From: a virus
Virus genome (UHGV): UHGV-1286557
Length of the DNA stretch: 41,749 nucleotides
Direction: 5' to 3' (one strand)
The translations under genes were made by a program, and so were the position numbers. Below the pieces are notes generated by a model. It worked only from the letters and a program-made list of their open reading frames with translations, ran no database searches and was not told the origin of the DNA. Within the stretch, counting starts at the first letter, position 1. Every line of letters starts with the position of its first letter. Below, piece by piece: positions 2,068-41,290 of the stretch.

Positions 2068-3387
2068 TTAAAGCGGGAATGAAACCGGGATCTGTTCAGG
2101 AGCATCATAGCTGACCGGGAACATGTAATCGATAAAATATCCGATCGCCGTCGTAATGTGCTGGTACTCGTTCTTTTGGTCTTCCTGGAATGCCGATCCC
2201 TGCTGCAGCTGCACCGTTGCAAGCCCTTTGTGGCTCCATGGCGCTGTCTGCGGATTGACATATAGGCTAACATGGTCGTCGGCGGTGCGGATCTTAGCGC
2301 GTACCGCGTTTTGGCGGTCCTTGATCGCCGGGTGCGCCGCCTTAACCCGGCGGGTGTACGTCCAGCCGTTCGCCGATAGCACGTCCTCGATGTCGTTATA
2401 ATCCGACTTATGGCCGTGCTTTTCCCCCGCGCGCCCGGCGGGGTCGCCGTAAATGAAAACGTGCTTGTTCTGGTGGTCTTTGAACTTCTCCACGAACTCT
2501 TTGGCCGACTGCTTCGACACCGCGCTAATCAGCACTATCTCGTCGAGGATATAGACATCATCACCGCGGATAACGGCAACAGAGGACGAGAGCGGCGTAA
2601 AGTTCTGGTCGTGCATCCAGTGCAATGATTCATGCGGGAAAATAGTCGCGTTCGTGTAGTTGTCCTTGGAATATTCCTCGTAAATTTTCCCGTTCGCCGT
2701 CTCGAATGAAGCCCGGAATTCCTGGTTATATTGCTTCTTCGACATTATCTTGCGCGCTTCGGCGGCCATTTCCGGGAAGATTTCCTCGGTCATCCAGTGG
2801 AATACCGCATAATCCGACGAAACGCCGCTTTCTGCTGCCGTGCACAGGTCGTAATAGTGGTTGAGGCCGTCCGGCACGCCGAGAAGCCAGCACCAGGCGC
2901 GGTAATCTGGCCGGGTCGGGTTTACGGTGTTGAGCGCCGGGTAGATGTTCGCTTCCCACGATTCGGGCTTGATGTCGGCGAATTCGTCAATGCCGCCACC
3001 GGTCCAGGGGATACCCTCGATACGCTGCGGCTTGTCCAGGCCGATAACGTGGATCTCCGATCCGTTAGGCAAGTAGATGATCAGGTCCGATTCAGACGGG
3101 CGACGCGGGTGCGCGCAGGATAGCGTGAACGCTTTCAGGTCGTCCCAAAATATCTTTTTGGCCTGGGCGTGGGTCGGAGCCGCCGCGAAGTACATTCCCG
3201 GGATCTTGAATGCCTGTTTCACCAGGAAGCGCTTAAACCGCTCGGTCTTTCCGGAGCGGCGGCCGGCGGGTACCAGCGGAAACCGGATGCCGTCGGACAC
3301 GGCCTTGATAAGTTTCAGCTGTACCGGGTGGTCTTTCAGTTCATACCATCGTGCGCGCTGGCGCTCCAGCAGTACGTTAACACTCAT
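2068..3387 (-). CDS. terL: terminase large subunit
   Basis: 439 aa. Walker A VPAGRRSGKT, Walker B GGGIDEF, nuclease-domain IYGDPAG; overlaps terS (ATGA). Confidence 0.9.
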   Translation of the reverse strand: MSVNVLLERQRARWYELKDHPVQLKLIKAVSDGIRFPLVPAGRRSGKTERFKRFLVKQAFKIPGMYFAAAPTHAQAKKIFWDDLKAFTLSCAHPRRPSESDLIIYLPNGSEIHVIGLDKPQRIEGIPWTGGGIDEFADIKPESWEANIYPALNTVNPTRPDYRAWCWLLGVPDGLNHYYDLCTAAESGVSSDYAVFHWMTEEIFPEMAAEARKIMSKKQYNQEFRASFETANGKIYEEYSKDNYTNATIFPHESLHWMHDQNFTPLSSSVAVIRGDDVYILDEIVLISAVSKQSAKEFVEKFKDHQNKHVFIYGDPAGRAGEKHGHKSDYNDIEDVLSANGWTYTRRVKAAHPAIKDRQNAVRAKIRTADDHVSLYVNPQTAPWSHKGLATVQLQQGSAFQEDQKNEYQHITTAIGYFIDYMFPVSYDAPEQIPVSFPL

Positions 3388-3902
3388 GATGGCATTTTCC
3401 CGATCAGCTCCGCCAGCTGTTCGCCGATATCGGCCTTATCTTTACCCGGGTCTACCGGCTCACGCATACCGTGGTTGCATTTCAGGATGAAAGTCGCACC
3501 GTTACCGCCTACACCGGCGGCGGACAGCTCCATGAGAAATGCTTTCTGCAGAGATTCGGCGTCGGCGTATGCGCGGTCCCATTCAGGCCAGTGCTCGCGC
3601 CAGTTGCGCAGCGTGTCACGGTTGACGCCGATCGACGCGGCGAAGCGCTCGAACGTCGGCAACTTGCTCTGCGGGATCACCTGCGCAGTGCCTTTATCCG
3701 TGTAGTGGATAATCCAGGACGCCGGCTCGGAGAAATAGCGCAGCAATGCGCCGCAATATTCCGGGCGGTAGTCGGTCGGTTTATCGTTGCTGCCGATGTC
3801 GTGCGGGAAGCGCTCGCCTTTCTTCCGTTTCGGCGGGACACCCCGTAGATGTTTCGGCTTCGGCTTTAGATTCATATAACCCCCATTATGCTTGCGTACC
3901 AT
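3384..3902 (-). CDS. terS: terminase small subunit
   Basis: 172 aa, basic N-terminus with HTH-like DRDTLRNW, immediately upstream of terL and translationally coupled. Confidence 0.65.
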   Translation of the reverse strand: MVRKHNGGYMNLKPKPKHLRGVPPKRKKGERFPHDIGSNDKPTDYRPEYCGALLRYFSEPASWIIHYTDKGTAQVIPQSKLPTFERFAASIGVNRDTLRNWREHWPEWDRAYADAESLQKAFLMELSAAGVGGNGATFILKCNHGMREPVDPGKDKADIGEQLAELIGKMPS

Positions 3903-3999
3903 ACGCGCGCACCAGCGGCCCCCAGGGCCACGTTAAGGGGATTATATAGCGGTGGTGAGGATTAGGCAAAAGAAGCCCGCACGGAGGCGGGCAAGTGGG

Positions 4000-4503
4000 C
4001 TATTTCTGGTTTATGGCGCCTTCGTAGGCTTCTTTCATAGCATCGCGCACCCATCCTTGCGGTTTTTGGTTTGTTTTAACACACCATTCATCAAACGTAA
4101 GAACCGGCGCTGGCTGCGGTCCTGCTTCGCGATACACTGGAATATATCCGGGGCCTGCATCTTCGCTACCAGCCTCACCATCAACTACGCCGCGAGCTAA
4201 GTATGCATCATTAAGCCAGGCGATGGGCTCACGCGCTACTACCGGCGCTGGCTGCACGCGGTAGGCGCGTAGCGCTTCTATTGCCGCCTGAATCACTGCT
4301 TTGTTGCCCAGCGCCGTGTTAGGCCACGACAGACCAGCAAGCGCCCCCGCTATACGTATATTTTCTGCCACCGGCTCGGCTTCCATAGTCGCCAGGAGCA
4401 TCTTATACGCGGCGAGGGTGTAATCCTCTTTCAGCGACCGCGCGCCCGATTCCAGCTCTGCGATACGGGCGGCGAGAGATTCTTTAGTTACGGTAGTTGT
4501 CAT
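4000..4503 (-). CDS. hypothetical protein
   Basis: ORF 4000..4518. ATG at 4503 overlaps the upstream stop (ATGA), giving MTTTVTKESL...; coding-like composition. Confidence 0.5.
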   Translation of the reverse strand: MTTTVTKESLAARIAELESGARSLKEDYTLAAYKMLLATMEAEPVAENIRIAGALAGLSWPNTALGNKAVIQAAIEALRAYRVQPAPVVAREPIAWLNDAYLARGVVDGEAGSEDAGPGYIPVYREAGPQPAPVLTFDEWCVKTNQKPQGWVRDAMKEAYEGAINQK

Positions 4504-4685
4504 AGCGTAACCCCGCACTTTACGCAGAAAAGGCGGCTATCTACATCAAAAGCGGGGACGTGCTTGCACTTATTCAGGTTGCCACGATTCACCAGCTCGC
4601 GGCGGTGCTCCTGGGCTACACGTAACGCCGCCTCAATCTCTGCGATCTTGGCGTCGGCCTTCTTGATTTGCTCGTCGATTGTCAT
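4500..4685 (-). CDS. small zinc-ribbon protein (CxxC...CxxC)
   Basis: 61 aa, CKHVPAFDVDSRLFCVKCG; coupled to neighbours. Confidence 0.45.
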   Translation of the reverse strand: MTIDEQIKKADAKIAEIEAALRVAQEHRRELVNRGNLNKCKHVPAFDVDSRLFCVKCGVTL

Positions 4686-5014
4686 ACGTCAATCCTTCTT
4701 ATTTCAATGTCAAGACCCGCGGCCTCGGCGGCCGCGATGCCGAACGACATGCCTCGGGATATCCCGTGATCAATATAAACCACGCTTGCTTCGGCCACTT
4801 TACGCCACGCCAGACCTGCGTTAATGCCTTGTTCCCGTTCTTCTGGGATCGAGTCATCCAGAATGCCGGGCTGGGTGTACAGAAGATGCGAGGCTATCGG
4901 TGCTTCGCCGCGCATTAAGGAGTCTCGAACGCAGCGGCGGGCGTATTCAATGTTGCCGTTTATCTCTTCTGCGGTTTCGCCCGCGTAGGGTGATTCGAGG
5001 ATTACGAGTCTCAT
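4682..5014 (-). CDS. DUF4406-like (nucleoside 2-deoxyribosyltransferase-like fold) protein
   Basis: 110 aa, MRLVILESPYAG...VVYIDHGISRGMSFGIAAAEAAG pattern resembles DUF4406. Recalled from memory, not searched. Confidence 0.4.
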   Translation of the reverse strand: MRLVILESPYAGETAEEINGNIEYARRCVRDSLMRGEAPIASHLLYTQPGILDDSIPEEREQGINAGLAWRKVAEASVVYIDHGISRGMSFGIAAAEAAGLDIEIRRIDV

Positions 5015-5406
5015 TGTGATTTTTCCTCTGCGAAATAGGCCAGCGCCAGGAGAAAGGCGCGCTGGGACTGCGGGTTTTTAAGCAGGCCGAAACGGTGGCG
5101 GATGGTCGCCAGGTGCCGATCGAACGAATCGCGGCACCCTTCCTCATCGGCCATCCGCACAACGGCAGCGAGTAACGCTTCGTTAAACAACGCTGCATCG
5201 GCTGCCGCTACTGGTTCGGGCGCGATGGTAAACTCGGCGTCTTCCAGAAACTCTGTGCGGTAGCCTTCTTTGTACGGCTCTAATGGCCAGAACCAGGGAG
5301 CCTGTCGGTCTTTGTTATCGTCTTGAACACGGTTAAACATGTCTATTTCGTACTCCCGGCCGACGGTGAACCAGGACACCTTTGACGCGGTGCAAATTAG
5401 TTTCAT
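5011..5406 (-). CDS. hypothetical protein
   Basis: 131-aa ORF, overlapping stops/starts with neighbours. Confidence 0.5.
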   Translation of the reverse strand: MKLICTASKVSWFTVGREYEIDMFNRVQDDNKDRQAPWFWPLEPYKEGYRTEFLEDAEFTIAPEPVAAADAALFNEALLAAVVRMADEEGCRDSFDRHLATIRHRFGLLKNPQSQRAFLLALAYFAEEKSQ

Positions 5407-5606
5407 TTCATTTGCTCCTTGCGCTTTTTCGCGATTGCTTTTCGCTGTTTCAGGAATGCCGCATCTTCCGCGGTCCTTAAGGTATGTCGTGCGAAGCTAA
5501 AATCGATGTCATTCTCTTCTACGAAATCAAAGAATGCGGTCATGGCCTTTACACAATCTTCTTTCAGTTTAGCCAGTTCTTTAAGGGTGCTTGTCTGGTT
5601 GGGCAT
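5403..5606 (-). CDS. hypothetical small protein
   Basis: Start ATG at 5604-5606 (MPNQTSTLKELAKLKEDC...) preceded by AGGAGCAAA RBS; first gene after the promoter at 5637-5666. Confidence 0.5.
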   Translation of the reverse strand: MPNQTSTLKELAKLKEDCVKAMTAFFDFVEENDIDFSFARHTLRTAEDAAFLKQRKAIAKKRKEQMK

Positions 5607-5636
5607 TTCGTTTGCTCCTGTGTAGTTGACGATATG

Positions 5637-5666
5637 AGTATAATCATATTGCAACCAACATTGCAA
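5637..5666 (-). promoter_or_regulatory. sigma70-like promoter TTGCAA-N18-TATACT, with ATGTTGGTTGCAATAT motif as spacer, driving the packaging gene block
   Basis: Minus-strand reading is cTTGCAATGTTGGTTGCAATATGATTATACT. -35 at 5661-5666, -10 at 5637-5642; downstream RBS AGGAG and ATG at 5606. Confidence 0.55.
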
Positions 5667-5674
5667 GTAGCGCG

Positions 5675-5709
5675 CAAAGAAAAAGCCCCAGCTGTTAAGC
5701 CAGGGCTTT
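5675..5709 (-). terminator. rho-independent terminator after the lysis cassette
   Basis: Stem AAAGCCC/GGGCTTT (5682-5688 / 5703-5709), then TTTTTCTTT on the minus strand. Lies between endolysin stop and the next promoter. Confidence 0.5.
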
Positions 5710-5754
5710 CGGACCGTCAGGAGCAAATCAATCGTGTGCCATGAAAATATAACA

Positions 5755-6249
5755 CTACTTCACGGCTCTGCCAATAGCTTCGGCCTCGGCTGCCGATTTG
5801 CCGTCGAACAGCGCGAGCCGCCCGGTTGCGCGCCGGCGCAGCCCCAGCATCACCTTACCACCCTGATAGATGAACTGCGGCAGCTTGGTGCGCAATGTCG
5901 CAATATCCCCGCGTCGCAGCGCCAGGCCGGTTCCGGTACTGGGCGCGATCACTTTCGGCCCGGCGTTGAATACCAGGTCCACCATAGCGTCGAAGTAGGG
6001 CCCGGTAACCAGCGGATGCGCCACCGCGTCGACCTGGCGCTCGGCCTCCGCCATATCCTGGCGCAGTAACGCCAGGGCATCCGGTTCGGTGATGCTCGCC
6101 GGCGCCTGGGCCCGCGTACCGGTATGGCCGTAGCCCCAGGTCAGGATCCCGCGCTCCTTCTCTTTGGCGGTCGCGTAATACGGCACAGGCTTAAACGTCT
6201 CCCAGCGCCGGGCGAATTCAACGGCGTTATCGCTGACTGTTCTTCGCAT
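5755..6249 (-). CDS. endolysin, GH24 phage lysozyme
   Basis: 164 aa. RRWE...YYATAKEKERGILTWGYGHT...FDAMVDLVFNAG...GGKVMLGLRRRATGRLALF matches the T4/P22 gp19 lysozyme pattern. Confidence 0.85.
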   Translation of the reverse strand: MRRTVSDNAVEFARRWETFKPVPYYATAKEKERGILTWGYGHTGTRAQAPASITEPDALALLRQDMAEAERQVDAVAHPLVTGPYFDAMVDLVFNAGPKVIAPSTGTGLALRRGDIATLRTKLPQFIYQGGKVMLGLRRRATGRLALFDGKSAAEAEAIGRAVK

Positions 6250-6511
6250 GGATTAACCTCCGATACTTGATATAACGCACCGACTTAACGCAGGCGCTGC
6301 GCAGAAATGACAAGGTGACCAGCACAAGGAGTGTTGACCAGATGAATACCGGCGCGCTGCCGTCTTTGTAGATGTGGATCAGCCCGGCGCCGCAGGTGAG
6401 AAACAGGCCCATGAACACCAGGCGGCCCAGCAGGCCGTCGTCGACCCAATGGGCATAAATGTTAAACAGCGCGGTCATGGCGATAACGGAAAGGCAGAAG
6501 GCACTAAGCAT
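6227..6511 (-). CDS. holin/antiholin-like membrane protein
   Basis: 94 aa with 2-3 predicted TM helices, between holin and endolysin; overlaps endolysin start. Confidence 0.5.
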   Translation of the reverse strand: MLSAFCLSVIAMTALFNIYAHWVDDGLLGRLVFMGLFLTCGAGLIHIYKDGSAPVFIWSTLLVLVTLSFLRSACVKSVRYIKYRRLIHAKNSQR

Positions 6512-6513
6512 GG

Positions 6514-6792
6514 CTATTTACCCCACGGTAGTTTAAAGCTGCTCGCCGCCACTTCCAGGGCCTCGAAGAATTTCCACCAGAAGGCGCCGATCACGAATGG
6601 CACCAGGTATTGCCCGTCGGTATCCGCCAGCTCGAAATAGCGGATCCCAAACGGTGAGAAGTAAACGGCACAAGCGGCACCGGCGGCCAGGTGTGCGCAG
6701 CGCTTCCACAACGGTAGCTGCTCTGCTTTCTTCACCTGGGCCACGATCCCGCCGCATACGGCAGCGACGACAAGCCAGAAATATCTGTCCAT
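6514..6792 (-). CDS. holin
   Basis: MDRYFWLVVAAVCGGIV... with two hydrophobic segments and a charged C-terminus; first gene of the lysis cassette. ATG at 6790-6792 (the listed ORF start at 6795 is a TTG). Confidence 0.55.
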   Translation of the reverse strand: MDRYFWLVVAAVCGGIVAQVKKAEQLPLWKRCAHLAAGAACAVYFSPFGIRYFELADTDGQYLVPFVIGAFWWKFFEALEVAASSFKLPWGK

Positions 6793-6826
6793 CAAAAAGG
6801 ACCCCCGAATGAATAGTATTCGGGGG
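6793..6826 (-). terminator. intrinsic terminator hairpin just after the promoter and just before the holin start (tR'-like)
   Basis: Minus strand: CCCCCGAAT-actattc-ATTCGGGGG, a 9-bp stem, followed by tccTTTTTg that runs into the holin ATG. Confidence 0.55.
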
Positions 6827-6827
6827 C

Positions 6828-6857
6828 AGTATAGGGCGATTTAGGATTAATCTGCAA
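6828..6857 (-). promoter_or_regulatory. promoter TTGCAG-N18-TATACT (pR'-like) between the AP2 gene and the holin
   Basis: -35 at 6852-6857, -10 at 6828-6833. Same architecture and identical -10 as the promoters at 5637-5666 and 8706-8735. The predicted start site falls in the terminator stem. Confidence 0.5.
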
Positions 6858-6858
6858 A

Positions 6859-7239
6859 TTACCAGTTTGTGTAAAGGCGACGGGCCGGCTTATTCGGGAT
6901 ATCGTAGTACCCGCGTTTACGCCAAAGCATGTAAATCCTTCGGGCCACTACCGCGCGTGCCTTGGACGAGAATAATCCGATTAGTATCTTCTTCGTCCCG
7001 TCGTAGAAATAGGCAGCCCACCCACCGCTTCTGCCGTCGAATGATATGCCCGGTACGTGTTCACCCTTGCGGGTGCTGCGTATTTTAGCAGGCGCGCGGG
7101 TGCGACCAAATTTGCGGGGCTCGCTTTGCTTAGGCTTAGGTGTCTCCCGCGGCTCGCTTGGCCTTGGCGCCCGGCGCGCTTTGGGTGGCGGGTTTGCGAT
7201 CTCCTCCGCGCGTTTCAGGATGTCGGTTGCAAGGCTCAT
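6859..7239 (-). CDS. AP2-domain DNA-binding protein (candidate late regulator / antiterminator)
   Basis: Start ATG at 7237-7239 (ATGA overlap), giving MSLATDILKRAEE... The C-terminal half HVPGISFDGRSGGWAAYFYDGTKKILIGLFSSKARAVVARRIYMLWRKRGY fits the AP2/ERF domain pattern. Basic Pro-rich N-terminus. It sits immediately upstream of the promoter-terminator-holin arrangement. Confidence 0.6.
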   Translation of the reverse strand: MSLATDILKRAEEIANPPPKARRAPRPSEPRETPKPKQSEPRKFGRTRAPAKIRSTRKGEHVPGISFDGRSGGWAAYFYDGTKKILIGLFSSKARAVVARRIYMLWRKRGYYDIPNKPARRLYTNW

Positions 7240-7568
7240 TCGTAAACATCCTCCACTTTGCCGCATACTATGCAGATTTTCAGGTCTGGCTCACGCGATT
7301 GTGGCTGCCATACGTGGTTACATTCAGCGCATTCCACCGGTTCAGCCTTCGGCCCTTCCAGCTCGGAGATCAGCCGGTTGATGTACCATTGCGCCTTCTT
7401 CACGTCCTCCAGGCCGTTCTTCGCCTCGTAGCGCCAGAGGTACTTGATGACGTTGGCCGTGCATATGGCTTCTGCCCCCGATTTATTTACGGTAGCGGCT
7501 TCCATCGCGTCGATACATTCCACGCTGCCGTTGTTGTAGTGCGACGGGTGGTTTACGTTGTCAGTCAT
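7236..7568 (-). CDS. DUF3310-family phage protein with C-terminal zinc ribbon
   Basis: N-terminal HPSHYNNGSVECIDAMEAA is characteristic of DUF3310; CAECNH...CIVCG at the C-terminus. Confidence 0.55.
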   Translation of the reverse strand: MTDNVNHPSHYNNGSVECIDAMEAATVNKSGAEAICTANVIKYLWRYEAKNGLEDVKKAQWYINRLISELEGPKAEPVECAECNHVWQPQSREPDLKICIVCGKVEDVYE

Positions 7569-7801
7569 TAGTCAACCTCCAGGCCGAGGCTTTCCAGTTC
7601 GTCCATGATCTCGTCGATACGGCGGTTAAGTTCGGCCAGAACAGCGGAGCGAACCGCCTCGACCATAGCGGCGTCCTGATATGCGCTGGCGATAGTGATC
7701 CCTAATCCGGTACCTCGTACAGATGCCAGCTGCTGGCGCAATTCGGCAATGCGCTGGTACTTGGCATACGCCATAGACAGATTTCCGATTTTCATGGTCA
7801 T
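7568..7801 (-). CDS. hypothetical protein
   Basis: 77-aa ORF with ATGA coupling on both sides. Confidence 0.45.
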   Translation of the reverse strand: MTMKIGNLSMAYAKYQRIAELRQQLASVRGTGLGITIASAYQDAAMVEAVRSAVLAELNRRIDEIMDELESLGLEVD

Positions 7802-8001
7802 TTATCCTTACTAATTCGTTTTGGTGAACAGTACGCGCGAATCTGCGCGTCGGGGCGCTGGCCTTCGAACAGCACCAGCGAGTTTTCCGCTTTACGGGCG
7901 GCCGCCTGGCACGCCTCCAGCGTATAGAACGTCTCGGTAGTGGGTGGGGACAGCACGCCCTGCGCCAGCACCCAGATAAACAGGACAGATGTCATTCGCA
8001 A
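7798..8001 (-). CDS. small secreted/membrane protein
   Basis: 67 aa with an N-terminal hydrophobic signal-like segment, MRMTSVLFIWVLAQG. Confidence 0.4.
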   Translation of the reverse strand: MRMTSVLFIWVLAQGVLSPPTTETFYTLEACQAAARKAENSLVLFEGQRPDAQIRAYCSPKRISKDK

Positions 8002-8282
8002 ACGCCCTCCCCCAGCGGTTTCTGTTTACGGCATTTCACGCATTCGAAATACTCTGGCACTGGGCCGCACGATGGCCCAACGACCCATAGGTGATCGCAC
8101 TCCGGGTGTGCGGCTGCCGCTGTGCGCTCCTCGACCGCCTGGATAACGGAGATGCGGACGCGGTCAGAAGGCAGCGCCTGCACGTGGCCGTTTGCGTTGA
8201 CCCGGATAAACGCCAGGCCGGTGATCTGCGCTTCGCGTAACGCCTCGGCGAACGCGTTCAACACTTCATGCTCACGGTTCAT
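7992..8282 (-). CDS. hypothetical protein with C-terminal Cys cluster
   Basis: Start at ATG 8280-8282 (MNREHEVLNAF...) with RBS AGGA 10 nt upstream; ...ECDHLW...CGPVPEYFECVKC. Confidence 0.45.
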   Translation of the reverse strand: MNREHEVLNAFAEALREAQITGLAFIRVNANGHVQALPSDRVRISVIQAVEERTAAAAHPECDHLWVVGPSCGPVPEYFECVKCRKQKPLGEGVCE

Positions 8283-8284
8283 AA

Positions 8285-8524
8285 TCAGCAATCCTCTTTG
8301 CGGCAGCCGCGTTGCTCTAGTAGCGCTTTGCGTGTCCGGCGCTCCTGGTAGTTGTTGCCGATTAAGTCGAAGTGATGCTCGAGATGCTTTGATACCCAAT
8401 AAACCTGCCCTACTGGGGCGCGTCCTATTGTAGGATTAGTCGGCCGCAGCACTCTTGGCCACTCTATGACGAGCACGGCGCTTCCGGTGAGTCTGTGACG
8501 CAATATCTGGCCTTTCTTAAACAT
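8285..8524 (-). CDS. small KOW/DUF2158-like protein (MFKKGQI...)
   Basis: Start at ATG 8522-8524 with GGGGGTGG RBS; paralogous to the upstream small gene. Confidence 0.45.
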   Translation of the reverse strand: MFKKGQILRHRLTGSAVLVIEWPRVLRPTNPTIGRAPVGQVYWVSKHLEHHFDLIGNNYQERRTRKALLEQRGCRKEDC

Positions 8525-8675
8525 TAGCCACCCCCATCCATGACTCGGGCAGATATGATTGATCATTGCCGTCTACTTCGGTCACGGCCCACATCCCTAA
8601 GCGGGTGTTAAACCGATCCAAAACATAGCTACGGCCGTTTAGCTTACTAACCACGATATCGCCTTTCTTAAACAT
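8517..8675 (-). CDS. small KOW/DUF2158-like protein (MFKKGDIVVSKLNGRSYVL..., 52 aa)
   Basis: Not in the ORF track (<60 aa). ATG 8673-8675 preceded by AGAGGAGCAAA; stop overlaps the next MFKKG start (ATGTTTAA). Tandem paralog. Confidence 0.4.
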   Translation of the reverse strand: MFKKGDIVVSKLNGRSYVLDRFNTRLGMWAVTEVDGNDQSYLPESWMGVANV

Positions 8676-8705
8676 GATATTTGCTCCTCTCGTTTCGGTC
8701 CTCTG

Positions 8706-8735
8706 AGTATATGTCTAAATCAATGTTGGTTGCAA
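8706..8735 (-). promoter_or_regulatory. promoter TTGCAA-N18-TATACT for the leftward small-gene block, with a near-palindromic operator TGCAATACTGTATAGCA on top of the -35
   Basis: -35 at 8730-8735, -10 at 8706-8711. The motif ATGTTGGTTGCAATAC occupies the region. The near-palindrome at 8731-8747 resembles the one at 11996-12007. Confidence 0.5.
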
Positions 8736-8858
8736 TACTGTATAGCAAAAATAAGGGCCGCGATAACTGGTATGGTAGTCTACTAGTCAACTAGCCTACT
8801 TGTGCGCGTGGGGTGCGGAATTCGCTAGGACTAATCTTAATGGCGACCGACAATCCAG

Positions 8859-9038
8859 TTACTCTCTTTTGGTTGCTTTTCTCTTCGCAACCAATTTCGA
8901 TTTACTAAGGCGTTTCGCCTCCCTGGACTTCATGCTGCCAATATATCGAGTTAACCAAACCTCGACACTCAATCCGCACTGTTCAGCCCTCTGTGAGATG
9001 TATTCGTACGCATTGTCTGACACTGTTATTTGCTTCAT
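8859..9038 (-). CDS. ribbon-helix-helix (CopG/Arc-like) DNA-binding protein, 59 aa
   Basis: Not in the ORF track. ATG 9036-9038 with RBS CAGGAGG; MKQITVSDNAYEYISQRAEQCGLSVEVWLTRYIG fits the RHH beta-strand plus two helices; basic tail. Immediately downstream of repeat A. Confidence 0.45.
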   Translation of the reverse strand: MKQITVSDNAYEYISQRAEQCGLSVEVWLTRYIGSMKSREAKRLSKSKLVAKRKATKRE

Positions 9039-9084
9039 ATTCCCGCCTCCTGATACTTGCTGCCGTGATATTTACATTCTAGCT

Positions 9085-9372
9085 ATTGCGAACTCGCAAA
9101 AAATATGATACGATCACTGCGTTCTCTTGGCGACGCCCGCCAAAGGGCAGCTCGCCTGAGACGCAATAACGTGATCGACTCACTTTGCGAAACAAAATCC
9201 CTCCATAAATCAATCACTTACCTACCGACTCGCAATCCATTTTTGCGAAAACCAACAAAAACGTCCTAAGTCCTTGAAAACGTTACTCGCAATTTCATTC
9301 GCAAAATTTTGCGAGTCTTGCGAGTCGATTCGCATTACTCGCAACACGTATTATTTTACGAGTTTAAGTCCT
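9085..9372. repeat. repeat A: ~290-bp iteron/palindrome cassette, homologous to 41010-41290
   Basis: At least 8 copies of TTGCGA(G/A)/(C/T)TCGCAA; 16-bp perfect palindrome TCGCAAAATTTTGCGA at 9299-9314; TGATACGATCA; GC hairpin. Shared blocks with copy B: CTAAGTCCTTGA and TACTCGCAATT. Begins at the last codons of the primase gene. Confidence 0.8.
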
Positions 9373-11656
9373 CATCACTTGCAACCAATTCCGGCGGGTC
9401 AAAATCGTTTAAGCCAGTCGGCAGCCGGTATTGTTGGTTGTAAACTTCGCCCGTATCCGGGTTGCGACCATGCACTAAAACCCGTCGTCGCACTAACTCT
9501 TCCAGCACTTTTTTATAGTTGCCGCTGGTGAACTTGTTTCCGCCGGCTGTGCCGATGGCATATGGTGAATAGCCTTCCGGGCGATCATCCAGAAGTTCTA
9601 GCTGGGCCACCATCACCTCTTCGGCCTTGTTCTTGGGTCCTGCGCCGCCGGAGGCTTTCACCGCCTCCCGGGCCACTTCGGCAGCTGGCGATTCGAATGG
9701 CGCCAGGGCGACCGGTACCAGATACAGTGTTTCGTCACGCGGCGACATCTCCAGCGGTTTCGGCGTCCAGCCGGACAGCTGATCGGAAAAGTCCGGGCCG
9801 GCGGCGGTGGACAGGTACGCGTTTACCCGGTCGGCGTGCGCCTGGGGGACGTCGATTTTACATTTCAGCAGGACGAAGCCGCGGGGCGACTGCTTGACGC
9901 CGTTACGCGCTTTTTCGTGATAGAGGTTGATCTGGTGCGGCTTGGTCTCGTCCGGCTGCTCGATGAAGTAGGCATAGTCGACGGCGCCATGCAGTGCGCC
10001 GGAGCCGCGGGCGGTACGCTGGCCCGAGGACGACTTCGCCGGGTGGTGGATAACGCCCGCGCTGCCGCCGGTGGTCTCGGAGATCTGTTTCAGCGCTCGA
10101 ACAATCTCGCCCATATCTGTCGGGGAGTTCTCATCGAACGGTTTTTTAGCCGTGCTGCGCATGGCGACGGTCTGGTTAAGCGAGTCGAAGGCTATCAGAC
10201 CTACCGGGGCGTCGCCGGCCGCGTCGCGTATGATTTTGCATACCTCTTTCACGCCCCGCGCGTCGGTGATATCGATGCCTTTATCCTGCAGGTCGATGAT
10301 ATGCAGCCAGTCCAGGTCGTCCTGGTACATTTTCTGCAGCGCCTGCTTACGATGCAGGCTGGTCTCGCCGCCTTCCGCATCGAAATAAAAGTTGTGCGCA
10401 CGCACGACACGCCGTCCGCCGAACGGGATCCCGGCGGAAATAGCCGCCATCTCGCCGAGGACGAAAAACGACTTACCGATGTTTGACTCGCCGGCGGCGT
10501 ACCAGGTGGATTTGAAATTGATCAGGCCCTCGATAATGGGATCGCGCTTGGTGAACAGGGTAACCGGGTCGTCGTCCAGGTCCTCGTCGGTACACTGCCC
10601 GGCGGACGGGCCATCCAGCGCCGCCATTACCTCGGCCTCGTAGACGTAGGTCACCTCTTCTTCGGGCAAATCCGGCAGCAGTTCGGCGATCTGCTTTTTG
10701 CTGATATTGTGAGCTTCCGGTAAATACTGGTCCGGCACACCGCAAAGGCGCAGCATCATGTGCTGGTGGGTGTTGTGCTTTTTGCAGTGGTCGTGCTGGC
10801 ACGCGAAGCGCACCTCGGGGTGAAGCGCATCCGGCATCATGATTGCCGTGCTGCCGTCGGTCCCGTCGTTGTCGCTGTGCTGGTAGTGGTTGGGGCACTG
10901 TATGGCGAAGCCGCGGCCAGAGGATAGCGGTTCGAGGCCCATCTCCCAGCACCATGCGGCGATAGCCTGGCTGTTCTCGCTGGCGTTCTCCAGCGCTTCG
11001 TCGGTCCAGTTGGTCGAGCCCGATTCGTCCGGAACGTCGAACCGGTGGCGCAGTATCCGGCGGACGCTGGCTGGCGCGCCGCGGTGGTCGATGGTCTCGG
11101 CCTCAATGTGCGGAGCGAACATAAGGCGGGCGCGCTGGAAAGCGGTTTCGTCCATCCCTTTCGCGCCGGTCAGCCCGAGCATATCGATGAATTTATGCTG
11201 ACACGGCCAGATCTCATCCGCCAGCATCGGCCGGTCTGTCGGGATGAGGAAACGCCAGGAGCGCGACTTAACGCCGCCTTTCAGGTCGTGCCGGTCGCCG
11301 CAGGTAGAGTAAGCGAAGAAAGTAAAACCGCCGTCCTCCAGTGCGCGACGCACCCGGCGGATCTCTTTGCTGGATACTTTGTCGATGTCGATAAACAGCA
11401 GGGACCTGGAAATGACGTTATTGTTATTGCGCTTGTTGCGCTCAAACTCCGCAGCGACATACGGCAACCGTCCTTTCTTTTCTTCGTAGCGATCTTCGGT
11501 CTCGCTGCCGTCAATGGATACCCCCAGCACGGGGTCGGCGCCGATCTCCAGCAGGTCGTCGATAAACTCATCCCAGGAGGATTCGAAAGCCTTCGGGCGA
11601 TTGTCGGTTTTATGCCGGCCGAGAGAATAGGATATTTTTGATTTTAACCGTGGCAT
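9356..11656 (-). CDS. DNA primase-helicase: N-terminal AEP-type primase with Cys/His zinc motif, C-terminal RecA-like (AAA_25/RepA-type) ATPase
   Basis: 766 aa. LLFIDIDK and FAYSTCGDRHD are AEP-like; CPNHYQH...CQHDHCKKH is a zinc motif; Walker A GESNIGKS and Walker B IAFDSL; C-terminal basic wHTH-like tail. RBS AGGAG. Confidence 0.75.
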   Translation of the reverse strand: MPRLKSKISYSLGRHKTDNRPKAFESSWDEFIDDLLEIGADPVLGVSIDGSETEDRYEEKKGRLPYVAAEFERNKRNNNNVISRSLLFIDIDKVSSKEIRRVRRALEDGGFTFFAYSTCGDRHDLKGGVKSRSWRFLIPTDRPMLADEIWPCQHKFIDMLGLTGAKGMDETAFQRARLMFAPHIEAETIDHRGAPASVRRILRHRFDVPDESGSTNWTDEALENASENSQAIAAWCWEMGLEPLSSGRGFAIQCPNHYQHSDNDGTDGSTAIMMPDALHPEVRFACQHDHCKKHNTHQHMMLRLCGVPDQYLPEAHNISKKQIAELLPDLPEEEVTYVYEAEVMAALDGPSAGQCTDEDLDDDPVTLFTKRDPIIEGLINFKSTWYAAGESNIGKSFFVLGEMAAISAGIPFGGRRVVRAHNFYFDAEGGETSLHRKQALQKMYQDDLDWLHIIDLQDKGIDITDARGVKEVCKIIRDAAGDAPVGLIAFDSLNQTVAMRSTAKKPFDENSPTDMGEIVRALKQISETTGGSAGVIHHPAKSSSGQRTARGSGALHGAVDYAYFIEQPDETKPHQINLYHEKARNGVKQSPRGFVLLKCKIDVPQAHADRVNAYLSTAAGPDFSDQLSGWTPKPLEMSPRDETLYLVPVALAPFESPAAEVAREAVKASGGAGPKNKAEEVMVAQLELLDDRPEGYSPYAIGTAGGNKFTSGNYKKVLEELVRRRVLVHGRNPDTGEVYNQQYRLPTGLNDFDPPELVASDEDLNS

Positions 11657-22020: not shown

Positions 22021-22512
22021 ATGGCGGATAAATCAAACACGGCGCCGGAGGATAAAGACTGCTGGCGCTCACCTCCGGAGATATTCGATCCGCTCAATGA
22101 GCGGTTTAATTTCCGCTACGATATGGCGGCAGCAGATCACAATGCCCTTTGCGCACGGTACTACACCGAACAGAATAGCGCCCTGGGTATCGAGTGGCCC
22201 GCAGCATGGAAATGGTGTAACCCGCCTTACTCGAAGCCGCTGCCGTGGTTCCAGCACGCCGCGCAGTACCGGAAAACGGTGTTACTCCTGCACCTGGCCG
22301 TCGCTACGCAGTGGATGGACATTGCGCGCAGGGAGGCGAAAACCATCATTCAGCTGACCGAGCGCATCCAGTTTATTCACGCCAGGACCGGCGAGCGCGC
22401 GGAGACGAAGAACAATCGCGACTCGCAGATCATCATCTTTGGACGTCGGCCTAATCCCGACGGCGCGCGCATCGTCCAGTGCTCGATCGCGGATATCGCA
22501 AAATATCTATAA
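22021..22512 (+). CDS. phage-type DNA N6-adenine methyltransferase (Dam, pfam05869-like)
   Basis: 163 aa. W.SP..IF..L...F.F..D.AA pattern; catalytic NPPY (CNPPYS); size and organisation typical of phage Dam. Confidence 0.75.
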   Translation: MADKSNTAPEDKDCWRSPPEIFDPLNERFNFRYDMAAADHNALCARYYTEQNSALGIEWPAAWKWCNPPYSKPLPWFQHAAQYRKTVLLLHLAVATQWMDIARREAKTIIQLTERIQFIHARTGERAETKNNRDSQIIIFGRRPNPDGARIVQCSIADIAKYL

Positions 22513-22514
22513 AT

Positions 22515-22548
22515 GTTGGTTGCAATATTAGCGGAGTCATATTATAGT
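22515..22548 (+). promoter_or_regulatory. moron promoter: ATGTTGGTTGCAATAT motif with TTGCAA-N17-TATAGT
   Basis: GTTGGTTGC at 22515-22523; -35 at 22520-22525; -10 at 22543-22548. The downstream block ATATTATAGTTAGTTCA is identical to the one at 39461-39477. Confidence 0.55.
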
Positions 22549-32689: not shown

Positions 32690-32718
32690 TTGATTTGTTG
32701 GTTGCGATATGTTTATAT
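32690..32718 (+). promoter_or_regulatory. promoter TTGATT-N17-TTATAT with TGTTGGTTGCGATAT motif as spacer
   Basis: Same architecture as the 5637-5666 promoter (hexamer, motif as spacer, TTATAY). GTTGGTTGC at 32697-32705. Drives the antisense small genes. Confidence 0.45.
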
Positions 32719-39340: not shown

Positions 39341-39437
39341 AGTACGTAGACCCCTGGTCTTTATGAATCCGGGCCACCCGGATTTACATACGCTAAATAT
39401 ACAGGGCAGCGCAAGTATTAACAATATATCTGCAAAT

Positions 39438-39471
39438 GTTGGTTGCAATATGTATGAATCAATATTATAGT
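39438..39471 (+). promoter_or_regulatory. promoter ATGTTGGTTGCAATAT / TTGCAA-N17-TATAGT (same module as 22515-22548)
   Basis: GTTGGTTGC at 39438-39446; -35 at 39443-39448; -10 at 39466-39471; shared downstream ATATTATAGTTAGTTCA. Confidence 0.55.
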
Positions 39472-40988: not shown

Positions 40989-41009
40989 TCCACCTTTACA
41001 TTGCTGCCG

Positions 41010-41290
41010 TTGACTTCTCGCAAAATAAATGATACGATCAGCTTCGCTTTTGAGCGACGCCCCGCTAGGGCGGGCGCGCAACAAGCAATTGAAGTGATCG
41101 ATTCAGCCTACCTCGTTATAACTCCTTGATTTCACTCACTTAATTTCGTCACTCGCAAACTAAAACGGCAGCAACCAACGAAATTAACCTAAGTCCTTGA
41201 TATTTATACTCGCAATTCGACTCGCAAAATTTTGCGAGTCTTGCGAGCCGCCGTTACACGTAATTTATTACGAGTTCCCGGACAGGAATT
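41010..41290. repeat. repeat B: second copy of the iteron/palindrome cassette
   Basis: 18-bp perfect palindrome CTCGCAAAATTTTGCGAG at 41221-41238; TTGCGAG half-sites; TGATACGATCA; hairpin CGCCCCGC-tag-GGCGGGCG; GCAACCAAC at 41171-41179. Begins at the last codons of the MuF gene. Confidence 0.8.

Follow-up and report, generated by a model that had tools for sequence, protein, structure and literature searches.

A holin promoter abutting a predicted RNA hairpin, a conserved box and a core AP2-fold protein at the lysis junction of a Guernseyvirinae phage

We analyzed the region at which a short operon of small genes meets the lysis genes in the virus genome UHGV-1286557, a DNA of 41,749 nucleotides (nt) that is referred to here, at its full length, as the window. 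The phage is a Guernseyvirinae siphophage of Klebsiella. In the order of transcription, the region contains an open reading frame (ORF) of 126 amino acids (aa) for an AP2-fold protein (6859-7239), the promoter of the holin gene, here called P2, a hairpin (6801-6827), a short U-tract (6794-6798) and the first holin gene (6514-6792). All of these had been listed in a preliminary description of the DNA, made from the sequence alone, and all are indeed present; they lie on the minus strand, which the description had left unstated. It had taken the arrangement for a copy of the lambda Q/pR'/tR'/S geometry and the AP2 protein for a new late antiterminator or activator. The locus is best explained as the junction of a short early/middle operon (promoter P1 at 8735, six small genes and the AP2-fold gene) and the lysis cassette. 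The AP2 gene is the last of its operon and stands right before the lysis cassette, a synteny found in 56 of the 61 related loci from IMG/VR that formed the comparison set upstream of the holin. The position given to the gene earlier therefore stands, while the likeness to lambda does not, as the RNA that starts at P2 is predicted not to form the hairpin.

The AP2 stop codon occupies 6861-6859 and P2 begins at 6857. P2 consists of a -35-like hexamer TTGCAG (6852-6857) and a -10 hexamer TATACT (6828-6833) with an 18-nt spacer between them and a GCCCCC discriminator. It agrees with the sigma-70 consensus at 8 of 12 positions, and it is because of this low agreement that a generic promoter scan missed it. 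Judging from promoter geometry, transcription is predicted to start 6-9 nt past the -10 hexamer (6819-6822), which is inside the 5' arm of the hairpin. The hairpin is composed of the 5' arm GCCCCCGAAU (6827-6818), the 7-nt loop ACUAUUC (6817-6811) and the 3' arm AUUCGGGGGU (6810-6801); it is GC-rich, as had been described, with 6 G-C pairs, although the pairs number 10 rather than 9. Its folding energy is -18.4 kcal/mol (z = -3.55), and 1 of 200 shuffled sequences folded as well. The 3' arm includes a Shine-Dalgarno-like GGGGG of the holin gene (6802-6806), 9 nt before the ATG (6792-6790). In the tail of the hairpin, UCCUUUUUG, the UUUUU at 6794-6798 is preceded by CC and followed by G and then by the holin ATG. 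The five U are therefore separated from the hairpin by a gap of 2-3 nt, whereas in an intrinsic terminator a U-tract of about 7-8 nt directly abuts it.

In the related loci, the DNA upstream of the holin sorts into four to five sequence classes that cannot be aligned with one another, designated by letters here, and the hairpin is kept in all of them (-11.8 to -19.9 kcal/mol). The 3' arm of every class holds a Shine-Dalgarno sequence, which can be GGGGG, AGGGG, GGAG, GGAGA or GGAGGA, 6-11 nt before the start codon. Every class also has a -10 element that abuts or overlaps the 5' arm, namely TATACT in the class of the window and an extended -10, TGnTAWYCT, in the other three. A U-tract follows the hairpin in classes A and C only, being perfect in C, and is missing in A', B and D; termination is thus not a conserved feature. 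When only the arms were aligned, 91.7% of the cells paired, 5 of 9 pairs changed on both sides, and none of 500 shuffles reached either the paired fraction or the covariation score, but this alignment was anchored by hand on the Shine-Dalgarno sequence and so leans towards structure, a bias that has to be counted against our interpretation.

For translation, the question is whether the Shine-Dalgarno sequence is free. In the window, its unpaired probability is 0.00 in read-through RNA, as compared with 0.38-0.61 in RNA started at P2. For six representatives, the corresponding values are 0.00-0.02 for read-through RNA and 0.36-0.62 for RNA starting 6-9 nt past the hexamer. The 29-nt P2 leader, taken from 6821, has a folding energy of -1 kcal/mol and an open centroid structure. 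As the -10 ends 1 nt before the stem and the P2 RNA lacks the C-run of the 5' arm, the P2 transcript would be unable to form the hairpin. The mechanism that we propose is as follows. Read-through RNA from P1 would fold the hairpin and bury the Shine-Dalgarno sequence of the holin, and in the lineage of the window, as in Jersey-type phages, the hairpin would also terminate part of the upstream transcripts at the U-tract. P2, being situated on the DNA that encodes the 5' arm, would give an RNA that starts inside the stem, is unable to fold and gets translated. Holin output would then be set by P2 alone, and the hairpin would be an insulator and not a Q-controlled terminator. The P2 start site and the differential translation of read-through and P2 RNA are elements that we infer; even so, the hairpin and P2 together probably make up a lock on holin translation of the type known from T4 gene e.

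A different account of the same hairpin is that it is a plain terminator of the P1 operon that overlaps the promoter incidentally, or else the DNA operator of a dimeric repressor, overlapping the P2 start. The hairpin does score best of the region in a terminator scan, and the authors of the genome of Ent1, a Jerseyvirus, labelled the homologous element a rho-independent terminator, but a plain terminator would not lead one to expect that the stem is kept in classes B and D without a U-tract, that the 3' arm always includes the Shine-Dalgarno sequence and that the overlap with the -10 is kept in all classes. The arms of a DNA palindrome, for their part, would covary like those of an RNA stem. 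Nonetheless, a class D variant (L049) pairs only via G-U, which favours structure at the RNA level over a DNA operator, and the arm sequence is unchanged where the AP2 allele differs. We consider either form of this account unlikely.

P2 has two sister promoters. The pattern TTGCAR-N18-TATACT occurs 3 times in the window, as compared with 0.01 expected, each time in an intergenic position on the minus strand. P1 (TTGCAA-N18-TATACT, 8706-8735) would drive the operon whose last gene is the AP2 gene, P3 (TTGCAA-N18-TATACT, 5637-5666) would restart transcription past the lysis cassette, and P2 is the weakest of the three. The late strand also carries terminators. One, after the endolysin gene (5676-5710, minus strand), has a 13-bp stem of -19.2 kcal/mol followed by UUUUUCUUU; another (3992-3975, minus strand) is followed by TTGCCT-17-TATAAT, and this module (3992-3941) precedes the small terminase gene. 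Each of the two has its own promoter within about 10-25 nt after it, and such modules of a terminator and then a promoter split the late strand into several short transcription units. In an Rfam search of 5400-9400, the holin hairpin had no match; the only one, to NsiR1 (E = 0.63), was terminator-like, below threshold and located at the terminator that follows the endolysin gene.

A 17-mer, AATGTTGGTTGCAATAT, was also observed at promoter-like sites, in the plus orientation at 8721-8737, 22512-22528 and 39435-39451 and in the minus orientation at 5647-5663, with a weaker copy at 32694-32710. Its TTGCAA is the -35 of P1 and of two plus-strand promoters of the form TTGCAA-N17-TATAGT; it overlaps P3 and is absent at the holin promoter. 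Like P1-P3, the 17-mer is unchanged in the close relative VLCpiS11a, which has another AP2 allele (see below), and it is absent from Ent1 and from the Kagunavirus K1G. It was rejected on these grounds as a motif that tracks the AP2 allele; possibly it serves as an operator for a regulator specific to the genus.

The -35/spacer region of P2 includes the box GATTAATCCTA (6842-6852; family consensus GATWAWTCCKA), a candidate operator. The box is found upstream of the holin in all of the sequence classes despite the unalignable DNA around it. In some phages it overlaps the stop codon of whichever gene is upstream, and an extra ORF inserted behind the AP2 gene does not part it from the holin promoter, so that box and hairpin both remain with the holin gene. 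The inserted ORF, of 144 aa (MTTIAFDGETMACD...), was seen at 3378-3812 in L007 and in about 16 other Jersey-/Kagunavirus-type loci; in Jersey-type phages it has no Pfam match. When up to one mismatch is allowed, the degenerate pattern of the box has 7 matches in the window, where 1.66 are expected. One such copy, GATTAGTCCTA (8826-8836, minus strand), is located about 95 nt upstream of P1, is kept in VLCpiS11a and has no -10 nearby, and in Ent1 and K1G, box-like sequences occur in the spacers of the promoters that follow the endolysin gene, at a different distance from the -10. As 3-5 chance matches are expected per genome, the extra copies were not relied on. Readings of the box as what we take to be a Fur-like GATAAT or an H-NS-like GATAAAT were dropped.

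The AP2 gene overlaps, with its ATG, the stop codon of the DUF3310 gene that precedes it, the overlap reading ATGA. A start at the in-frame ATG of 7266, which would give 135 aa, was rejected, as the homologues all begin with MSLATDIL after a good Shine-Dalgarno sequence. The protein matches PHROG 4947, a family of unknown function, with E = 1e-31. It has 35 close homologues, and tblastn found it in 516 phage records, nearly all of them labelled hypothetical; on the strength of these sequence comparisons, the gene is a core gene of the Guernseyvirinae subfamily, whose members infect Klebsiella, Salmonella and E. coli. When used alone, the 126-aa protein gave no Pfam match at E <= 0.1. PF00847 was, however, matched by 11 of 29 family members (best E = 4.5e-4, under the gathering score), a family profile found only AP2 proteins in the PDB, and among 1.84 billion representatives the same profile found multi-AP2 proteins with E down to 1e-29, for which Pfam confirms AP2 and one of which is HNH_3+AP2. 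An AlphaFold model shows a three-strand sheet and a C-terminal helix with a predicted local distance difference test score (pLDDT) of about 86, and its best structural matches are AP2 domains. The predicted AP2 fold is thus well supported by profiles and model alike, in agreement with the preliminary description. The weak matches to PHROG HNH endonucleases cover residues 61-102 only, which is the AP2 part of those profiles, and neither Pfam nor PHROG showed an HNH or nuclease domain in the protein, so that the nuclease homology named earlier as a possible refutation did not appear. The remark that phage AP2 domains are normally found inside HNH homing endonucleases has to be corrected, as stand-alone phage AP2 proteins of 57-116 aa are common in BFVD and the stand-alone state is not in itself unusual.

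Four parts can be distinguished in the protein. The N-terminal peptide MSLATDILKRA (codons 1-11, 7207-7239) belongs to a predicted helix of residues 3-15, and M1, L3, A4, D6, I7 and L8 are invariant in 29 sequences. The synonymous sites of its codons vary freely, AGY/TCN serine switches included, which points to selection on the peptide itself. Residues 16-60 (7060-7194) form a disordered, basic, Pro-rich linker with 15 K/R and 10 P in 45 residues, which has no secondary structure in the model (pLDDT 53-64) and differs in length among homologues. The AP2 domain covers residues 61-108 (6916-7059), with strands at 65-68, 73-79 and 84-90 and the helix at 93-108. The C-terminal tail IPNKPxRRLYTNW (residues 114-126, 6862-6900) has invariant K117, R121, L122 and Y123, and P118 is nearly so.

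In our proposal, the AP2-fold protein would be a small protein that binds nucleic acid, is expressed from the P1 operon and acts as a transcription factor for P2 via the box at 6852-6842, and the invariant N-terminal peptide would be its protein-contact motif. The DNA-binding fold, the basic linker and the protein-level selection on the N-terminal peptide, as read from sequence and model, suggest such a link. The AP2 gene and the box also co-occur across the subfamily, and in most loci the gene is the immediate upstream neighbour of the holin promoter. Moreover, a holin shielded from read-through is easiest to understand with a P2 that is itself timed. P2 is weaker than either of its sister promoters and its discriminator is rich in G+C, so that activation would be likelier than repression. 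Direct action of the protein at P2 through putative binding to the box is a step that we regard as rather doubtful. For the whole, that is, an insulated holin promoter with the AP2 protein as the factor of P2, we make a tentative claim: it is our best explanation, held at slightly short of even chances.

There are several observations that count against this proposal and need to be considered. VLCpiS11a and 37P2 are 93-95% identical to the window across the region, except for the AP2 gene, which from codon 12 to the stop codon is replaced by a 36%-identical, 115-aa allele (window 6859-7205 as compared with 3133-3445 in L001 and 4160-4472 in L002); the C-terminus of the upstream DUF3310 gene was seen to differ in these phages as well. 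The DNA is nonetheless 100% identical from TAATTTGCAG onward, so the box does not change when the AP2 allele is swapped and there is no covariation between allele and site. We also looked for a repeated motif that would differ between the two AP2 alleles, and none was found. The distance from the box to the -10 is 18-19 nt in classes A and D but 41-43 nt in B and C, and about 17 loci have a further ORF between the AP2 gene and the holin promoter. By a manual alignment, the canonical Arg/Trp sites of the sheet that contact the major groove, as in AtERF1, appear to be S, D, Y, Y, K and L in the allele of the window, whereas the 115-aa allele retains more Arg. AP2 folds also bind RNA, as in Toxoplasma mitoribosome proteins, and stand-alone AP2 homologues exist in unrelated contexts elsewhere, such as that of the Jedunavirus MEW1. 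As P1, P2 and P3 share their hexamers and spacing, P2 may simply be constitutive. Finally, a literature search on Guernseyvirinae transcription or phage AP2 function found only genome descriptions with predicted promoters.

Many of the same observations would fit an AP2 protein without any part in lysis or late transcription, with P2 constitutive or under another factor and the position of the gene a mere operon end. The protein could then be an early/middle accessory (host shut-off, replication/recombination or anti-defence) or a domesticated HNH-AP2 homing-endonuclease module, although no nuclease domain is present. The swap of the allele between near-identical phages with their flanking regulatory DNA unchanged, and the extra ORF that is tolerated before the holin promoter, are readily understood in this way, as are the hypothetical label in nearly all of the 516 records and the many unrelated phage contexts of stand-alone AP2 proteins; that of MEW1 lies within a structural module, away from the lysis genes. 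Other small putative DNA-binding proteins are also at hand, namely that of a 59-aa ORF at 8859-9038 and ORF20, ORF42 and ORF45 of Ent1. On the other hand, the conservation of the gene, of its N- and C-terminal motifs and of its position across the subfamily argues for a fixed role at the junction. We take this account to be a serious possibility, though one that stands below even odds.

In a third account, the AP2 protein is a Q/AlpA-like processive antiterminator with a new fold. It would bind the P2 box and load onto polymerase paused at the -10-like TACTAT (6818-6813), the invariant N-terminal peptide on its basic tether would engage RNA polymerase, and the polymerase would change to a late form that is activated or resists the late terminators. 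The box does lie between -35 and -10, like the AlpA binding element, and AlpA also governs lysis genes (PMC9371919). TACTAT (6813-6818, minus strand) belongs to the loop of the hairpin and would correspond to about +4 to +9 of the RNA predicted from P2; it is the only feature that would suit a sigma-dependent pause, but while it is kept in classes A and A', it is not kept in B, C and D, which have no common equivalent. The invariant segment with a flexible linker behind it calls to mind the N-terminal segments of Q and AlpA that are termed the 'nozzle'; the fold is unrelated to that of any known Q or AlpA; no Q-family Pfam match was found in the protein or in 16 neighbouring ORFs (3384-9038), in line with the statement that a Q homolog is missing. 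A regulator gene immediately before a late promoter is indeed reminiscent of lambda, although the adjacent hairpin cannot form in P2 RNA and the U-tract is missing in two lineages. Intrinsic terminators are present in the late region, and many are annotated in Ent1, but as those at 5710-5676 and 3992-3975 each have a promoter after them, read-through is not required. Together with the missing covariation of allele and site, these points make the account very improbable. The lambda-Q geometry is thus not upheld and the antiterminator interpretation is not supported, while a role as late activator is a candidate.

The surroundings of the junction are as follows. The minus-strand order is primase-helicase, a noncoding iteron region, P1, six small genes (the DUF3310 'nucleotide kinase' included) and the AP2 gene, and then holin, holin, endolysin, terminator, P3, small genes, terminator and promoter, terminase, portal, head and tail. 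The first holin gene matches PHROG 2359 (E = 6e-29) and is annotated as holin in VLCpiS11a and 37P2, the second (6227-6511, minus strand) matches the PHROG 2508 holin, and the endolysin (5755-6249, minus strand) has a Phage_lysozyme domain (PF00959, E = 4e-21). In Ent1 and K1G, the primase is encoded on the opposite strand, and the AP2 gene is in a 3-4-gene operon that begins at a divergent control region and ends right before the lysis genes. Among the 16 neighbouring ORFs and the AP2 protein, Pfam revealed no sigma factor or clear regulator. The 59-aa ORF (minus strand), between the iteron region and P1, has weak matches to the SeqA N-terminal domain and NikA; read as a ribbon-helix-helix-type protein, it is a further candidate small regulator. 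Two noncoding paralogous regions (9071-9350 and 40995-41250), one of which comes directly after the primase-helicase gene, share 76% identity across 100 nt and contain dense ACTCGCAA/TTGCGAGT iterons in both orientations; they are candidate origins or operator arrays. Rz-like spanin genes are annotated among the head genes (35265-35651 in L064, VLCpiS11a; 4663-5158 in L065, K1G), far from the holin-endolysin cassette, so that lysis functions are encoded at two places of the late region.

Guernseyvirinae, including Jerseyvirus, Kagunavirus and Klebsiella relatives, find wide use in biocontrol and phage therapy, and in the literature we found no published work on the timing of their lysis or late transcription. 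The best-supported new point of our analysis is that these phages probably guard the holin by a T4-lysozyme-type lock, with the promoter set in the hairpin, beside a conserved box. This provides a testable model in which such a lock, made with host-type promoters, would keep the holin silent on early transcripts. The box and the core AP2-fold protein, whose N-terminal peptide is invariant, are put forward as first candidates for the timing factor that is missing. Should the AP2 protein regulate P2, no stand-alone AP2 protein of a prokaryote or virus would have had a known function before it, and the case would be relevant to the idea that eukaryotic AP2 transcription factors arose from phage/endonuclease modules. 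In the very improbable event that it were a loader of the Q/AlpA type, it would, besides being the first of its kind in viruses or bacteria to be given a function, represent a fourth independent fold for promoter-loaded elongation control. Should it have no role at P2, the locus would be an ordinary operon end beside a known type of translational control.

Several known systems can be compared with the locus. From the AP2/ERF domains (plant ERF, TEM1 and WRI1, apicomplexan ApiAP2 and the AP2 modules of phage HNH homing endonucleases), the protein of the window differs in having no nuclease domain, in having an N-terminal peptide that is invariant, a basic linker and a C-terminal tail peculiar to its family and, by the manual alignment, in that the contact Arg/Trp appear to be mostly replaced. 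The mode of action proposed here resembles that of T4 MotA, phi29 p4 and Mu Mor and C, phage activators whose binding site is at a weak -35 or upstream of it, with the box at a poor -35 in classes A and D and about two helical turns upstream in B and C; as there is no homology, this is an analogy only.

With Q-lambda, Q82 and Q21, the locus shares a regulator-like gene that is the last before the lysis promoter, a conserved DNA element in the promoter and a hairpin with a U-tract before the holin. It differs in that there is no similarity of sequence or fold and in that the hairpin is 1 nt past the -10 and not wholly transcribed from P2; lambda tR' is about 190 nt downstream. In addition, the pause element is not conserved here, and the late region is split into several promoter-terminator units. 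In cis, Q and AlpA require that the promoter contain an element to which they bind, that the initial transcript include a -10-like pause element and that the RNA from this promoter have a terminator to cross, and a helical helix-turn-helix (HTH) fold is common to Q21, Q-lambda, Q82 and AlpA (PMC9371919). Proteins of this class, which come with or without a zinc finger, also bind RNA polymerase, at the beta flap and RNA exit channel. AlpA of Pseudomonas aeruginosa, likewise a small DNA-binding-type protein, controls lysis genes, and its binding element lies between -35 and -10, where the candidate box is found here. However, AlpA is a helical HTH protein that needs a -10-like pause and a downstream terminator (PMC9371919), and neither of these is convincingly present at P2.

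The closest likeness is to T4. The T4 genes e, soc, 49 and I-TevI have their ribosome-binding sites concealed in early read-through RNA, while their late promoters are located in the DNA for the 5' strand of the helix (PMC3014915). The locus differs from gene e in that the promoter is of the sigma-70 type (TTGCAG-N18-TATACT or an extended -10), whereas that of T4 is of the gp55 late type TATAAATA, in that it is a holin that would be protected, in a siphophage, and in that the hairpin would double as an intrinsic terminator in two lineages; the case made here is also a computational one. What is alike is the shielding of a lysis gene from premature translation, with the Shine-Dalgarno sequence in the 3' arm, a promoter that overlaps the 5' arm and a transcript of its own that would lack the inhibitory strand, a design that in both cases is kept across relatives whose sequences have diverged.

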